DNA of 64,000 nt from Escherichia coli (GTDB lineage: Bacteria; Pseudomonadota; Gammaproteobacteria; Enterobacterales; Enterobacteriaceae). The stretch lies in assembly GCF_036507355.1 (NCBI RefSeq), contig NZ_AP027877.1; one strand, given 5' to 3'. Below, in pieces: positions 46,940-54,582 of the stretch. The notes under the pieces were generated by a model. The model saw nothing but the letters and a program-made list of their open reading frames with translations. It made no database searches and was not told the origin of the DNA. The position numbers and the translations under genes are program-made. Each line of letters starts with the position of its first letter. Positions within the stretch are counted from its first letter, which is position 1.

Positions 46940-47232
46940 TAGCGCAGGCCAGAAGAGGCGCGTTGCCCAAGTAACGGTGTTGGAGGAGCCAGTCCTGTGA
47001 TAACACCTGAGGGGGTGCATCGCCGAGGTGATTGAACGGCTGGCCACGTTCATCATCGGCTACAGGGGCTGAATCCCCTGGGTTGTCACCAGAAGCGTTC
47101 GCAGTCGGGCGTTTCGCAAGTGGTGGAGCACTTCTGGGTGAAAATAGTAGCGAAGTATCGCTCTGCGCCCACCCGTCTTCCGCTCTTCCCTTGTGCCAAG
47201 GCTGAAAATGGATCCCCTGACACGAGGTAGTT
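46940..47232 (+). promoter_or_regulatory. lysC 5' leader / lysine riboswitch (L-box)
   Basis: ~300-nt structured leader upstream of lysC containing AGAGGCGC and GGAGGAGCC-type L-box segments; boundaries approximate. Confidence 0.7.
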
Positions 47233-48582: not shown

Positions 48583-48726
48583 TATTTCCCTACTGGCGTA
48601 TAACGCTCACCAATTGTTATACGCCATCCTCACTGAAAACATAGATTAAATAATATCTGAAAAGCAAAATCACTCCTGTAGAACAGTATTATAACCACCG
48701 AAAAATATCATTTAACAGGAGTGTTA

Positions 48727-49656
48727 ATGGCTACTTTAATGGAAAAGGATGCACTTTTAAACGGCGCCAGTCAGTGCATCGCGTTTTTATCAAATATCGT
48801 CGACAGTTGTTTTTCCTCACAAGTTCAGGACTCAGACGATGAGCTATCACAATTAGTCAGCTATCGCGACAATCTTTATTCCACTCCAGCAGAAATTGTT
48901 GATTTTACACAGGGAATGTTACGCCTCCAGCAGGTCAGAAAAAAGTATCAGCGTGAATTTAATAATACTGCGCATTCAGAAAATAAAGCGTCTTTTGATT
49001 CTATTTGGCAGCGTCTGACAAACCATGACGTCACATCCCAGCAGAGTCCCATTGGTTTTGTTTTAGGTGGACAACCAGGAGCCGGAAAATCCATCCTAAT
49101 CGAATTAGCAAAAAGGGAAACAAAGAATAATATAATGATTATTAATGGTGATGATTTCAGATTTCTACACCCTGATTTTAATTATATATATCAAACTTAT
49201 GGCGACGATTTTGTTACCCATACGGCAAAATTTTCCGGCGAAACGGTCGAACGTGCAATAGAGAGGGCCATAGCCAATAAACTCAATATTGTTGTCGAAG
49301 GAACATTTCGTAATGCCGCTACGCCGCTACAAACATTAAAAAAACTCAAAGATGCAGGCTACCGAACAGAAGTCATGATAAAAACCACCTCAGCGGCATT
49401 AAGCTGGGAAAGCACCAACGAACGGTATAATAAGGACAAAGAGGCGGGAAATATCGCCCGCAAAGTGGATAAAAATCACCATGATATCGTCACCGATTTG
49501 CTAGCAGAAAATGCCAGCAAGGTGTTTGCTTCAAACCTGGCAGATAAGTTTGCGGTGTATTCGCGTGAGAAGATGATATTTAGTTCACAAGCGGCAACCA
49601 ATTGCGATATTGCAACGCTTATACAAAATGAAATCAGCGGAAGTGCACAAGAATAA
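48727..49656 (+). CDS. ezeT: EzeT-like zeta-toxin family kinase with N-terminal cis-inhibitory extension
   Basis: ATG at 48727 with SD AGGAG 6 nt upstream gives 309 aa (track ORF starts at GTG 48721); Walker A GGQPGAGKS matching zeta/PezT GGQPGSGKT, preceded by ~110 aa non-kinase domain; name assigned from memory of the E. coli EzeT description. Confidence 0.7.
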   Translation: MATLMEKDALLNGASQCIAFLSNIVDSCFSSQVQDSDDELSQLVSYRDNLYSTPAEIVDFTQGMLRLQQVRKKYQREFNNTAHSENKASFDSIWQRLTNHDVTSQQSPIGFVLGGQPGAGKSILIELAKRETKNNIMIINGDDFRFLHPDFNYIYQTYGDDFVTHTAKFSGETVERAIERAIANKLNIVVEGTFRNAATPLQTLKKLKDAGYRTEVMIKTTSAALSWESTNERYNKDKEAGNIARKVDKNHHDIVTDLLAENASKVFASNLADKFAVYSREKMIFSSQAATNCDIATLIQNEISGSAQE

Positions 49657-49679
49657 TAAAAGCTGATGACCTGAAATAA

Positions 49680-49700
49680 CGCCGGGCATCACGCCCGGCG
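49680..49700. terminator. bidirectional hairpin between convergent ezeT-like and nucleotidyltransferase genes
   Basis: CGCCGGGC-ATCA-GCCCGGCG inverted repeat between the two stops. Confidence 0.5.
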
Positions 49701-50480
49701 CATTACCGTCTGGTACAGTAAGCTATCCAGTTTCTTAACGTCCCCTTCTCTACTATCCGGTAACACAGGCGGAATTTCCCCACGCGCCAGTTCCGCATGG
49801 ATAAACGCATGTAGCAATGGACGGCGTGGGCCATATTCCGCTTCACCCGCACGCTGTTTACGTTCCAGTAATTCATCTATTTCTGCGCGTAAGGCCGCAT
49901 CCAACTCACTTCCCGCCAGCAATTCGGAAAAACGCATTGGCGGTACGCCTTTTCCCGCTTCAACCCAACGCACGGCCAGCAACGGACGCAGCACGTAAAA
50001 GTATTTTTTCAGTCGAACTTCATCGCCCTGCAAATATCCGCGGAAGTTTTTCTGCGCCATCGAATAGTAATGCCAGCGCGCACGCAGCGGAGAAAACCAC
50101 GTTGGGACCATTGCCTTAAGCGCCGTTATCGTTTCTTCATCTTGTTGATAGACCACCGGAGAATCCAGCCATTCTATCAGCGTCGGGTTCGCGCCTTTCA
50201 ATAATCCCAGCGCCTTACGCCACTCCCAACCGGAAACATCTAACTCGTCGTCGATGGGCAGCTCAATAACATCGCGCGGTGACTCTACTCGCAGATACCA
50301 TTCCAGCGGGTGAACATACAAAAACCGTACATCGTAGTCGCTGTCGGGCGAGGCAAATCCCCAACCGCGACTCCCCGATTCACAGGCGTACAGTACTTTC
50401 ACATCATACCGCCGTTCAATTTCTTTTAACTGCTGCGATACCCTTTCGCGCATCGCAGCACTGACTCCATTTAATGGCAT
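49689..50480 (-). CDS. Pol-beta-superfamily nucleotidyltransferase, uncharacterised
   Basis: 263 aa from the ATG at 50480 (track ORF starts at GTG 50489 overlapping the upstream stop); GS-x10-DxD motif in VLYACESGSRGWGFASPDSDYDVRF; second gene of a two-gene operon. Confidence 0.7.
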   Translation of the reverse strand: MPLNGVSAAMRERVSQQLKEIERRYDVKVLYACESGSRGWGFASPDSDYDVRFLYVHPLEWYLRVESPRDVIELPIDDELDVSGWEWRKALGLLKGANPTLIEWLDSPVVYQQDEETITALKAMVPTWFSPLRARWHYYSMAQKNFRGYLQGDEVRLKKYFYVLRPLLAVRWVEAGKGVPPMRFSELLAGSELDAALRAEIDELLERKQRAGEAEYGPRRPLLHAFIHAELARGEIPPVLPDSREGDVKKLDSLLYQTVMRRA

Positions 50481-50485
50481 GTTAC

Positions 50486-51613
50486 TCACCCTTTGATATT
50501 AACCAACCCGTGCAGAACCTGATCCAGACCGCCAAATACAGAGATGTTATCAATCCGCTCAGCCACTCTCTCCAGCGTTTCCAGCTCTTTTAAACGCAAC
50601 GCTACCGGATTGTTCTCCATGACTTTGGCGGTGTTCAGTAACGAGCGCGTCGCTGCCGTTTCTTCACGTCGGCGAATCACATTCGCCTGCGCAGATTTCT
50701 CTGCCTCAACCAGCTGCGCAAGGATATTTTTCATATCGCCAGGCAGGACGATATCTTTCACCCCTAATGAAGCAATCTCCATACCGAACGGCTTCATGCG
50801 CGATTTCACCTGTTCGCTGACAACGTCATCAATGACCTGTTTATCTTCCAGCAATTCATCCAGCGTACGCGTACCTACCACTTCACGCAGTGCAAATTGC
50901 AATTCCCGATACAAATGATCAATCGGCTTCGTTAACTGACTAAATGCTAATAACACGTCGCTGTAGCGCCAGTTAGCCGCGAGGTTAATCCGCAGATTGA
51001 CCTTATCTTTCGTTAAGATTTCTTGCCCGCTGACTTCCAGTACCTGCAAGCGGGTGTCAACCACTTCAGCTTCAACCAGATGGTTAATTTTCCAGTACGC
51101 GGTAAGCCCCGGCGGTAACAGCGCCTGCGTTTCACCATCGATTTTCAGCACGCCTACATGCCAGGCCGGAACCTGCACCGTCAGTATCGCATCGCGGCCT
51201 TTAACAACTCCTTTGCGCCGTGGCTGTAATACCGCATTCATCACCTCCGTTTGTACCGGGACTTGCTGCGTATTCATCCGCACCAGCGTCAAATCATCCT
51301 CTACACGCCAGTACAAACGACGCGTTGATGGCGGCAGGATCTCCAACAAAATACCGTCCATATACAACACCCCGGCTTCAGTCTCCGACAAGTCTGCCAC
51401 CAGGCAATATTTCTCCACCCAATCAGGCTGAAAGCGGCGCAAATAATCCGCAAGCACGTCGGGAACTTCGCTACCATCCAGCGTAATCAGCAACACTTCC
51501 GGGGTATTTAACCAGGGTAAAATATGCTCGCCTGCATGCAGCACTTTGTAGTAATCGCCGTTTCTGGAGAGTAATGCCAGCTGATCTTTTCTTACGCTTA
51601 TTTTTTTAATCAT
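50486..51613 (-). CDS. SPFH/band-7 (stomatin-like) domain protein with unique N-terminal domain
   Basis: 375 aa; C-terminal half carries SPFH signature (DKVNLRINLAANWRY..., ...LVEAEKSAQANVIRRREETAATRSLLNTAKVMENNPVALRLKELETLERVAERI...); N-terminal ~185 aa lack a hydrophobic anchor; ATG at 51613 with AAGGA SD. Confidence 0.75.
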   Translation of the reverse strand: MIKKISVRKDQLALLSRNGDYYKVLHAGEHILPWLNTPEVLLITLDGSEVPDVLADYLRRFQPDWVEKYCLVADLSETEAGVLYMDGILLEILPPSTRRLYWRVEDDLTLVRMNTQQVPVQTEVMNAVLQPRRKGVVKGRDAILTVQVPAWHVGVLKIDGETQALLPPGLTAYWKINHLVEAEVVDTRLQVLEVSGQEILTKDKVNLRINLAANWRYSDVLLAFSQLTKPIDHLYRELQFALREVVGTRTLDELLEDKQVIDDVVSEQVKSRMKPFGMEIASLGVKDIVLPGDMKNILAQLVEAEKSAQANVIRRREETAATRSLLNTAKVMENNPVALRLKELETLERVAERIDNISVFGGLDQVLHGLVNIKG

Positions 51614-52141
51614 TATCTATTCCTTGCTTAATAGCCGTCGCGGAAGCAGACACGAAGCGACAGGGGAATTCCCTTTTGCCTGTTACCCGGCATCTTTATC
51701 GGCGACGTTATCGGGGACCGCAGACTGCGCAATCCCTCATTTTTTATTTAATAAGTTACAACCAGTATTCATTTCAGGAATGAATGTGGGAATCGAACCC
51801 GTAATTGGCGTCAAAGGCTGATGGAACACGCCCGGAAAACAGCCTGGCCGTTCCTGGTGTGCCGACGGGGTTTAACCCCCTTTGTAATTCAGTATCAACG
51901 CAAAAGTGTTATTGCGAGAAGCGTGCCAGAAGTGATAAAAAATTTTAATTACATGAAAAATAAAGATTTAATAAATCATTATTGTTTGTAGGGGGAGATT
52001 TTTTCGCTAAATTTGTATCTGTATTTATCGTCAATTATCAAGAAAGATAAATATTTAAGAAGAGAACAAAGGAATATTATCAGTTCTGCTTGCAAATAAA
52101 TTCCCGTACACTGAACTATCCGATTAACAGAGGGCACCATC

Positions 52142-52414
52142 ATGGCACTCCCCCGTATTACTCAAAAAGAGATGACTGAGCGTGAACAGCGCGAACTGAA
52201 GACGCTGCTGGATCGCGCGCGTATTGCACATGGTCGCGTGCTGACCAACGCCGAAACCAACAGCATTAAGAAAGAGTACATCGATAAATTAATGGTCGAG
52301 CGTGAGGCTGAAGCGAAAAAAGCCCGCCAGTTAAAGAAAAAGCAGGCTTATAAACCGGATCCTGAAGCGTCATTTAGCTGGTCAGCAAATACGTCGACGC
52401 GCGGCAGGCGCTGA
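52142..52414 (+). CDS. yjbD: YjbD (DUF3811-type small protein)
   Basis: 90 aa; MALPRITQKEMTEREQRELKTLLDRAR... Confidence 0.85.
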   Translation: MALPRITQKEMTEREQRELKTLLDRARIAHGRVLTNAETNSIKKEYIDKLMVEREAEAKKARQLKKKQAYKPDPEASFSWSANTSTRGRR

Positions 52415-53287: not shown

Positions 53288-53634
53288 AAATTCTCCTGTA
53301 AAACGCGGAATATACCGTACCTCTTAGCGGGGAAAAACAGGGTTATGCGGCAACGTCGAAATTAAATGTGATCTGCCACGCCTTTTATCACAAAAGTGTC
53401 TCCGGAAGTACAATGCAAATTTGCCTGGCAAAATAAGGATAATCAACATATTACGAATCGCTGCACACCTGTGCTGATGACTACTGCGCAGAGAAACAAA
53501 TGTGCAAGAGAAAGCGCTATTTCTCCCCATGCAAAGAGTGAAAAATCGCTTTGAAAGGCCATCATGATGGGGTTATATCAGATCAAGCGGTGAGAAAGCG
53601 TATTTGCACAAATGTGCAGAACCAGGAGGCGGCA

Positions 53635-54582
53635 ATGGAAAACAGTGACGATATCCGTTTGATTGTGAAGATTGCCCAACTCTATTACGAACAGGATATG
53701 ACGCAGGCGCAAATCGCGCGCGAACTGGGTATTTACCGCACCACCATCAGCCGCTTGCTTAAACGAGGCCGCGATCAGGGAATTGTCACCATCGCCATCA
53801 ACTATGACTACAACGAAAATCTCTGGCTCGAGCAGCAACTGAAGCAAAAGTTTGGCCTGAAAGACGTTGTGGTGGTGTCGGGAAATGATGAGGATGAAGA
53901 GACTCAACTGGCGATGATGGGGTTACACGGCGCGCAACTGCTGGATCGCTTGCTGGAGCCTGGCGATATTGTCGGTTTTTCCTGGGGTCGCGCGGTGAGC
54001 GCACTGGTTGAAAACTTGCCGCAAGCGGGGCAATCGCGGCAGTTAATCTGCGTGCCAATTATTGGCGGACCGTCCGGTAAACTCGAAAGCCGCTATCACG
54101 TAAACACATTAACCTACAGCGCGGCAGCGAAGCTGAAAGGGGAATCGCATCTCGCGGATTTTCCGGCTCTGCTGGATAACCCCTTAATTCGTAATGGGAT
54201 CATGCAGTCTCAGCACTTTAAAACCATCTCTGCCTACTGGGATAATCTGGATGTCGCCCTGGTGGGAATTGGCTCACCGGCCATTCGCGACGGCGCTAAC
54301 TGGCATACGTTTTATGGTGGTGAAGAGAGTGACGACCTGAATGCCCGCCAGGTTGCTGGCGATATTTGCTCGCGCTTTTTTGATATTCACGGCGCAATGG
54401 TTGAAACGAATATGAGCGAAAAAACACTCTCTATCGAAATGAATAAATTAAAGCAGGCACGATATTCAATTGGCATTGCCATGAGTGAAGAAAAATACAG
54501 CGGAATTATTGGTGCACTGTGTGGAAAATATATTAATTGTCTGGTAACGAATAGCAGCACAGCTGAACTATTACTGAAATAA
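53635..54582 (+). CDS. sorC: SorC-family transcriptional regulator of the sorbose operon
   Basis: ATG at 53635 with SD AGGAGG gives 315 aa (MENSDDIRLIVKIAQLYYEQDMTQAQIARELG...); N-terminal HTH plus sugar-binding domain; track ORF starts at an upstream TTG. Confidence 0.8.
   Translation: MENSDDIRLIVKIAQLYYEQDMTQAQIARELGIYRTTISRLLKRGRDQGIVTIAINYDYNENLWLEQQLKQKFGLKDVVVVSGNDEDEETQLAMMGLHGAQLLDRLLEPGDIVGFSWGRAVSALVENLPQAGQSRQLICVPIIGGPSGKLESRYHVNTLTYSAAAKLKGESHLADFPALLDNPLIRNGIMQSQHFKTISAYWDNLDVALVGIGSPAIRDGANWHTFYGGEESDDLNARQVAGDICSRFFDIHGAMVETNMSEKTLSIEMNKLKQARYSIGIAMSEEKYSGIIGALCGKYINCLVTNSSTAELLLK

Follow-up and report, generated by a model that had tools for sequence, protein, structure and literature searches.

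Sequence and position identify a zeta-type toxin gene in the lysC-yjbD islet of Escherichia coli as ezeT

Identity of the gene

A stretch of 64 000 nucleotides of Escherichia coli DNA (NCBI RefSeq assembly GCF_036507355.1, contig NZ_AP027877.1; hereafter the window, to which all positions refer unless another locus is named) carries between lysC and yjbD a gene that very probably encodes EzeT, a zeta-type UDP-N-acetylglucosamine (UNAG) kinase inhibited in cis by another part of the same polypeptide. The gene is already known (Rocker & Meinhart 2015, Mol Microbiol 97:589), and its mechanism was published for an allele whose product is 89% identical to the one described here. A first-pass annotation, made from the letters of the window without database searches, had proposed an EzeT-like single-chain zeta toxin at this place. 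Its assignment proved accurate, and the proposal was even understated, given the gap-free match to WP_000212693.1 in the same slot that is described below. On its own, finding a toxin of 2015 again in its published locus carries little weight. Two modest leads, which we did not meet in reviews, are (i) the existence of several old allele classes that differ chiefly in the antitoxin domain and (ii) the exchange of the 1.1-kb ezeT cassette with a headless phage-tail cluster.

As the first-pass annotation had reported, the open reading frame codes for 309 amino acids (aa); it runs uninterrupted on the + strand from an ATG at 48727 to a stop codon ending at 49656. An identical protein is deposited at NCBI (WP_338387908.1 / BED24264.1) under the description 'zeta toxin; poison-antidote element [Escherichia coli]'. 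Its closest characterized relative, WP_000212693.1, is the experimentally validated 'dual TA EzeT' (PMC10532202); the two proteins (309 versus 308 aa) are 89% identical and align without gaps. In E. coli EC21Z-048 the gene for WP_000212693.1 stands in the order lysC, zeta toxin, nucleotidyltransferase, slipin and yjbD, which is the arrangement of the window, and homologues of lysine-sensitive aspartokinase 3 were described as adjoining EzeT in E. coli B1 strains (PMC10532202). EzeT was located in a 3.4-kb islet (PMC5812544); the size of the islet delimited here by alignment with K-12, about 3.43 kb, agrees with this value. The gap-free match, the shared slot and the same size of the islet make the window gene, by sequence and gene order, the positional orthologue of EzeT as published, and more than an EzeT-like gene.

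Reviews that cover the work of Rocker & Meinhart (PMC4803016, PMC4826407 and PMC10532202) describe full-length EzeT as harmless, and EzeT-deltaN83 as causing permeabilization, loss of viability and accumulation of UNAG-3-phosphate (UNAG-3P). According to PMC4803016, residues 1-82 quench the activity and toxicity of the kinase both in cis and in trans, and toxicity is seen only below 30°C. The reference protein and the window protein share the two-domain organization, the catalytic residues, the lack of a separate antitoxin gene and the locus; they differ in that the window carries a minor allele class, with 93% identity in the kinase and 77% in the antitoxin domain. A separate antitoxin gene of the epsilon/PezA type upstream is impossible in the window because the stop codon of lysC and the ATG of ezeT are only 144 bp apart, with no open reading frame in this interval.

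Kinase domain, N-terminal domain and proposed mechanism

At the level of sequence, the similarity of the ezeT product to zeta toxins goes far beyond chance. The Pfam Zeta_toxin profile (PF06414) matched residues 102-282 (E = 2.2e-40; model positions 10-189 of 199), and among the sequences of solved structures both PezT (2p5t) and zeta (1gvn) were matched, at E = 3.3e-32 and E = 2.6e-27, respectively. The score with the NCBIfam PezT model (128.8 bits) was under the equivalog cut-off of 470, so that the protein is a member of the family and not a PezT equivalog. The Walker A motif GGQPGAGKS, already noticed in the first pass, spans residues 114-122, and its lysine (K121) aligns with K46 of zeta and K45 of PezT. 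The catalytic Asp and Arg residues for which the same annotation had suggested a search downstream of the P-loop are present as D142, R233 and R245. Across 60 aligned homologues no variation occurred at K121, D142, E191-R195 (E, G, T, F, R), R233 and R245. Further correspondences with zeta are E175 (E100), E191 (E116), T203 (T128), R233 (R158) and R245 (R171); zeta E100, E116, T128 and the GTxR motif are residues which reportedly bind UNAG in the structure 3q8x and the 2011 work of Mutschler et al. The window protein thus retains every catalytic and UNAG-binding residue of zeta. One of them, Asp67, is named as the catalytically important residue of zeta (PMC5923241).

An AlphaFold2 model of full-length EzeT, built on 60 homologues, reached a mean predicted local distance difference test score (pLDDT) of 91.4 and a predicted template modelling (TM) score, pTM, of 0.90. 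From the N-terminus it shows a bundle of three helices, which packs on the kinase, then a linker, then helix 90-95 with F90 and W94, which are family-wide, and finally the kinase core from the strand at 109-115 onwards. When the model was searched with Foldseek, zeta (1gvn_B) was the best match (E = 1.4e-15, root mean square deviation (rmsd) 1.7 Å over 222 columns), followed by UNAG-bound zeta (3q8x) and PezT (2p5t; best chain 2p5t_F, E = 1.1e-14), and AvrRxo1 (E = 8e-5) and ng-zeta1 (E about 2e-3, TM 0.37) were far weaker. The PDB copy searched contained no solved EzeT structure, its best matches being about 30% identical.

These comparisons bear on the question of whether the kinase could act on another substrate, for instance on UDP-sugars, UDP-MurNAc among them, at the 4'-OH, like ng-zeta1, or on NAD, like AvrRxo1. 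Specificity does vary within the fold, to which ng-epsilon1/ng-zeta1 of Neisseria gonorrhoeae (6epg, 6eph) and AvrRxo1 (4z8v) belong as distant members, and the targets of ng-zeta1 are the C4'-OH groups of several UDP-sugars (PMC5923241, PMC10532202). However, both are weak matches (TM 0.37-0.43) which differ in substrate or site of phosphorylation and in having a separate antitoxin, and the fold of the window protein is far nearer to zeta and PezT (E about 1e-15, rmsd 1.7 Å) than to either of them. Moreover, the GTxR motif and the counterparts of zeta E100, E116 and T128 are conserved, and the reference kinase domain, 93% identical to that of the window, makes UNAG-3P according to passages of PMC4803016 and PMC10532202. 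We regard a substrate other than UNAG as extremely unlikely.

PezT of Streptococcus pneumoniae PezAT (2p5t) has in common with window EzeT the zeta fold, the P-loop, the catalytic Asp, GTxR and both Arg residues, at about 28-30% identity. However, PezT is neutralized in trans by PezA, which is encoded upstream and consists of a helix-turn-helix domain and a three-helix bundle, whereas the inhibitor of EzeT is fused to the kinase and has no DNA-binding domain. Zeta (1gvn), the top structural match, displays the same catalytic constellation, and its inhibitor epsilon is a three-helix bundle too; in contrast to EzeT, it belongs to a plasmid-borne, three-component, Gram-positive system, and the N-domain of EzeT has no detectable homology to epsilon.

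The N-terminal extension of about 110 aa described in the first pass stands as a count of the residues that precede the P-loop (about 113). It does not stand in a comparison with PezT and zeta, in which the P-loop begins at residue 38 and residue 39, respectively: the true extension amounts to only about 75-83 residues, which fits the published EzeT antitoxin domain 1-82. Across seven N-domains, M1, T3-M5, K7, D8, L10, A19, R47, D48 and L50-T53 were invariant; residues 1-22 and R47-T53 are conserved and residues 23-46 are hypervariable. Membership of the N-domain in the epsilon/PezA family was considered and found to be unsupported by sequence profile, hhalign and Foldseek. A profile of the seven N-domains gave no epsilon or PezA match at E ≤ 10 among PDB sequences, the hhalign comparison with epsilon returned a probability of 0.1%, and Foldseek, run with residues 1-97 modelled on their own by AlphaFold (pLDDT 78), retrieved only generic helical bundles (best E = 0.086). 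In function, the published experiments make the EzeT N-domain a counterpart of epsilon.

Sequence searches detected the EzeT-type N-domain in Escherichia, in Pseudocitrobacter (60-61% identical) and in one metagenomic protein (36%) only. Whole-length matches to the model in AFDB50 (TM 0.85-0.97) comprised a 59%-identical protein, two 309-aa Pasteurellaceae proteins and proteins of Fusobacterium necrophorum, Selenomonas and Veillonella; the single-chain architecture thus has a broader spread than the sequence search alone would indicate. No near-full-length single-chain form was present in the phage collection, and near-full-length matches in the plasmid collection were limited to a 1.0-Mb and a 4.8-Mb record, which are too large for plasmids and are probably chromosomes. 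A separate observation concerns kinase homologues from Neisseria and Haemophilus (P0023, P0036, P0044 and P0084; 296-342 aa, 44-48% identical by BLASTP), which are devoid of the N-terminal domain and carry a C-terminal extension of 60-100 aa; P0009 (267 aa) and P0010 (266 aa) are also C-tailed. These extensions could represent a different cis-regulatory or antitoxin arrangement.

By analogy with the 89%-identical allele, the C-terminal domain of the window protein (aa ~84-309) would use ATP to phosphorylate UNAG. Mutschler et al. (2011) reportedly found that the product, UNAG-3P, inhibits MurA, which blocks peptidoglycan synthesis and causes lysis. The N-terminal three-helix domain (aa 1-82) would silence the fused kinase in cis, and the full-length protein would be harmless until this domain is removed, or displaced by a trigger. 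If the analogy with epsilon holds, the start of helix 1 (TLMEKDALL) and the RDxLYST motif may together make up the inhibitory face of the N-domain, which would close off the nucleotide site. Two points weigh against this scheme. First, the experiments concern the reference allele, and the antitoxin domain of the window is 77% identical to the one tested, falling to 58% in residues 23-46. Second, the N-domain has no detectable kinship with epsilon or PezA, so that epsilon-like blocking is an analogy.

Distribution, allele classes and constraint

The distribution of the gene was analysed in a set of 5426 complete E. coli genomes. The first-pass annotation had suggested looking at whether the islet varies across E. 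coli, and it does: ezeT is present in 1433 genomes, where all copies are chromosomal and single, the RlaP-family nucleotidyltransferase and slipin genes that accompany it in the window are present in 1631, and K-12 is without the islet. Only 47 of the 1433 ezeT-positive genomes carry a copy at least 95% identical in nucleotide sequence to that of the window, which is thus a minor allele; 1385 carry one at 80-90% identity (the reference type). Counts based on protein clusters are less straightforward, in that the 90% cluster holding WP_000212693.1 also holds many 449-aa lysC proteins and has a representative of lysC length; this is probably a clustering artefact, which distorts the cluster counts of EzeT.

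Nucleotide identity between the window and the reference haplotype changes along the locus: 99.2% in lysC, 98.6% in the lysC-ezeT spacer, 81.9% in the N-domain and 91.2% in the kinase domain of ezeT, 95.0% in RlaP, 96.2% in slipin, 94.9% in yjbD and 98.2% in rluF. Synonymous divergence (dS) between the allele classes reached 0.77 in the N-domain, compared with 0.36 in the kinase and 0.029 in lysC. The ratios of non-synonymous to synonymous divergence (dN/dS), 0.18 for the N-domain and 0.10 for the kinase, indicate that both domains are under purifying selection. At least four allele classes exist in Escherichia, with N-domains 76-83% and kinases 88-93% identical; among these classes residues 23-46 are 50-67% identical, and residues 1-22 vary only at residue 14. 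The corresponding ratio of proportions of differences (pN/pS) was 0.40-0.64 in residues 23-46 versus 0.10-0.13 in the kinase. Positive selection on the antitoxin domain was considered and rejected: dN/dS is not above 1, and pN/pS indicates relaxed constraint and old divergence.

A third allele class occupies the same slot in an Escherichia genome with a diverged lysC (dS 0.15), which argues that the islet is old in the genus. In the comparison with this third lineage the islet genes show a dS of 0.5-0.7, and lysC 0.15. With locus L001, ezeT and slipin are near identical (dS 0-0.03), and RlaP (0.175) and yjbD (0.21) are more distant. In these comparisons (window 48727-52414 with L001, L002 and L010) the islet shows a mosaic structure and an age far beyond that of the flanking sequence.

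The closest allele from a complete genome (L001, 4145-5074) differs from that of the window by six nucleotides, all of which are non-synonymous; six differences are too few to call selection. They affect residues 56, 57, 63, 64 and 123, two of them falling in codon 123, directly after the Walker A Ser, and residues I57, M64 and I123 are specific to the window. Such a pattern might be expected if the gene were a decaying functionless remnant, that is, a domesticated or inactive toxin. Truncated copies in some E. coli and in Shigella dysenteriae point the same way, as does the statement in PMC4803016, in the part bearing on temperature, that the EzeT tested was non-functional at 37°C. However, the reading frame of the window gene is intact and of full length, its catalytic residues are all kept, dN/dS between classes is 0.10-0.18 at a dS of 0.36-0.77 and the model is confidently folded. 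Decay of the gene is, on balance, most improbable.

The islet, its exchangeable slot and neighbouring genes

The features of the locus are listed in Table 1. In K-12, lysC and yjbD are adjacent, with 122 bp of unrelated sequence where the window has the islet; homology to K-12 ends at the lysC stop codon and returns near position 52012. The first-pass annotation had ezeT convergent with an SPFH/nucleotidyltransferase operon, and the RlaP and slipin genes indeed lie on the opposite strand, as a two-gene unit with an overlap of a few bases. The slipin has weak similarity to HflK/HflC, under the curated cut-offs, and belongs to a large family (545 clusters at E < 1e-30).

Table 1. Features of the ezeT locus in the window
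Feature	Position	Strand	Basis or remark
lysC-yjbD islet, about 3.43 kb	48583..52011	.	K-12 lysC-yjbD alignment
ezeT cassette (exchangeable slot: promoter region plus gene)	48583..49673	+	Boundary in genomes with a phage-tail cluster in place of ezeT
Hairpin downstream of lysC, 12-bp stem, no U tract	48594..48626	+	RNA fold -15.7 kcal/mol, z = -5.7 versus shuffles
Candidate -10 hexamer TATTAT, no recognizable -35	48687..48692	+	Read from sequence; putative promoter role
Shine-Dalgarno AGGAG	48717..48721	+	5 nt upstream of the ezeT ATG; read from sequence
ezeT coding sequence, 309 aa plus stop	48727..49656	+	Open reading frame call, Pfam, PezT/zeta matches, EzeT alignment
N-terminal cis-antitoxin domain (predicted), aa 1-83; helices 4-27, 32-52, 60-73	48727..48975	+	AlphaFold model; published EzeT(1-82)/EzeT-deltaN83 boundary
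Zeta-type UNAG kinase domain (predicted), aa 84-309	48976..49656	+	Pfam PF06414; Foldseek 1gvn_B, 2p5t
Walker A / P-loop GGQPGAGKS, aa 114-122	49066..49092	+	Aligned with PezT and zeta; invariant in 60 homologues
Catalytic Asp D142	49150..49152	+	Equivalent to zeta D67 and PezT D66; invariant in 60 homologues
GTFR motif, aa 192-195	49300..49311	+	Equivalent to the GTxR motif of zeta and PezT
GC-rich hairpin between convergent ezeT and RlaP	49680..49700	.	Fold -27.3 kcal/mol, z about -3.9 (+), -3.6 (-)
RlaP-family (PF10127) Pol-beta nucleotidyltransferase	49689..50480	-	Pfam RlaP E = 1.1e-96; PGAP start in L001; not part of EzeT
Slipin / SPFH (Band_7) protein, 375 aa	50486..51613	-	Pfam Band_7 E = 1.1e-24; not part of EzeT

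Almost all ezeT-positive genomes (1424 of 1433) contain at least 80% of the islet, and about 198 genomes keep RlaP and slipin with ezeT absent. In the two of these that were inspected (ECONIH1 and D6), phage-tail genes occupy the slot; similarity to the window begins at 49674 and the lysC-ezeT spacer is absent. The cluster of ECONIH1 (L009, 4371-20015) spans 15.6 kb and is headless: it comprises a Mor activator, a holin, a lytic transglycosylase, sheath, tube, tape measure, baseplate and tail fibres, has no capsid or integrase annotated and is tailocin-like. In strain D6 the phage-tail genes are at L003, 1-4015. In Pseudocitrobacter, the gene for the full-length homologue (60-61% identical) is flanked by a HEAT-repeat gene and an HD-domain gene, with neither RlaP nor slipin. 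Since ezeT is convergent with the two genes, has a boundary at 49674, is missing from about 198 genomes that keep them and stands in an unrelated context in Pseudocitrobacter, it is separable from them; it is a self-contained exchangeable cassette beside, and not within, the RlaP/slipin unit, and the locus acts as a variable hotspot for conflict-type cargo. In Pseudocitrobacter sp. 73 (L005, 5288-5962), a 224-aa HEAT-repeat protein is encoded 38 bp upstream of the ezeT homologue on the same strand, and a convergent HD-domain gene follows; the HEAT-repeat gene could be an operon partner absent from E. coli.

The first-pass annotation had gone further and suggested a composite defence islet. As a functional unit this was not borne out: the neighbours have no match in PADLOC, and ezeT and RlaP/slipin occur independently of each other. 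The idea would cast ezeT as the effector of a defence system of three genes, the other two being those of the RlaP nucleotidyltransferase and the slipin. The near-constant company of these genes in ezeT-positive E. coli, with 1424 of 1433 genomes retaining at least 80% of the islet, would fit such a system, and so would the variability of the slot, with its alternative tailocin-like cluster, and the divergence of the islet genes, which is far greater than that of the flanking core genes and common for conflict loci. However, PADLOC-DB v2 gave no match for RlaP or slipin and only a marginal one for EzeT (PDC-M04B, E = 0.0012 over 50 residues), the two units are convergent and transcribed separately, and about 198 genomes have RlaP/slipin without ezeT. 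Furthermore, the Pseudocitrobacter homologue has neither RlaP nor slipin beside it, and full-length EzeT is self-contained in the experiments described in part of PMC4803016. Distant slipin homologues were examined on four contigs; three of these, of which two are only 2.0-2.3 kb long, carry a gene next to that of the slipin, and in no case is it RlaP. We consider the three-gene system very unlikely, and prefer to see EzeT as a separate, exchangeable unit.

A bolder proposal, which we judge unlikely, combines the hypervariable segment with the slot: residues 23-46, which lie between the invariant start of helix 1 and the invariant RDxLYST motif, would form a trigger-sensing surface (responding, for example, to a protease or to a protein of a phage or competitor), and the slot would be a dedicated hotspot that swaps lysis-type cargo, either ezeT alleles or a tailocin, beside a resident RlaP/slipin module. 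If this were true, the deep allele classes would persist through frequency-dependent selection, with EzeT acting as an effector of the abortive-infection type.

As for the RlaP/slipin unit itself, a 2025 preprint describes two Pseudomonas RlaP enzymes that append one or two nucleoside monophosphates to RNA 3' ends. When the islet was searched for non-coding RNAs and tRNA-like genes, the lysine riboswitch of lysC was all that Rfam (E ≤ 1) and ARAGORN returned. SPFH and RlaP proteins are said to have been tied to RNA repair and tRNA-like RNA by Burroughs and Aravind in 2016. The hairpin between the convergent genes, a probable terminator of the RlaP/slipin unit, has a U-rich tail on the - strand only, and it is located on the RlaP/slipin side of the cassette junction.

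With respect to expression of ezeT, the Shine-Dalgarno sequence seen in the first pass was found again. An in-frame GTG occurs at 48721, two codons upstream of the ATG; in other E. coli genomes RefSeq/PGAP uses the homologous ATG. A consensus scan upstream of ezeT identified no full sigma-70 promoter. The EzeT promoter was reported as weak, with a -10 and no -35, in a passage of PMC4803016, and the TATTAT hexamer without a -35 in the window appears consistent with this. The hairpin that follows lysC may act as the lysC terminator.

Two observations concern the surroundings of the islet. The lysine riboswitch upstream of lysC (46945-47141, +; Rfam RF00168, 99.5 bits) is ordinary and expected. 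After rluF, the window encodes a SorC-type sugar-binding regulator (53551-54582, +), as do L001, L003 and L009; in these three loci it is followed by a short-chain dehydrogenase/reductase family oxidoreductase gene and by phosphotransferase system genes of the mannose/sorbose type, and in K-12 and L002 pepE comes directly after rluF. The region after rluF is a second presence/absence islet nearby.

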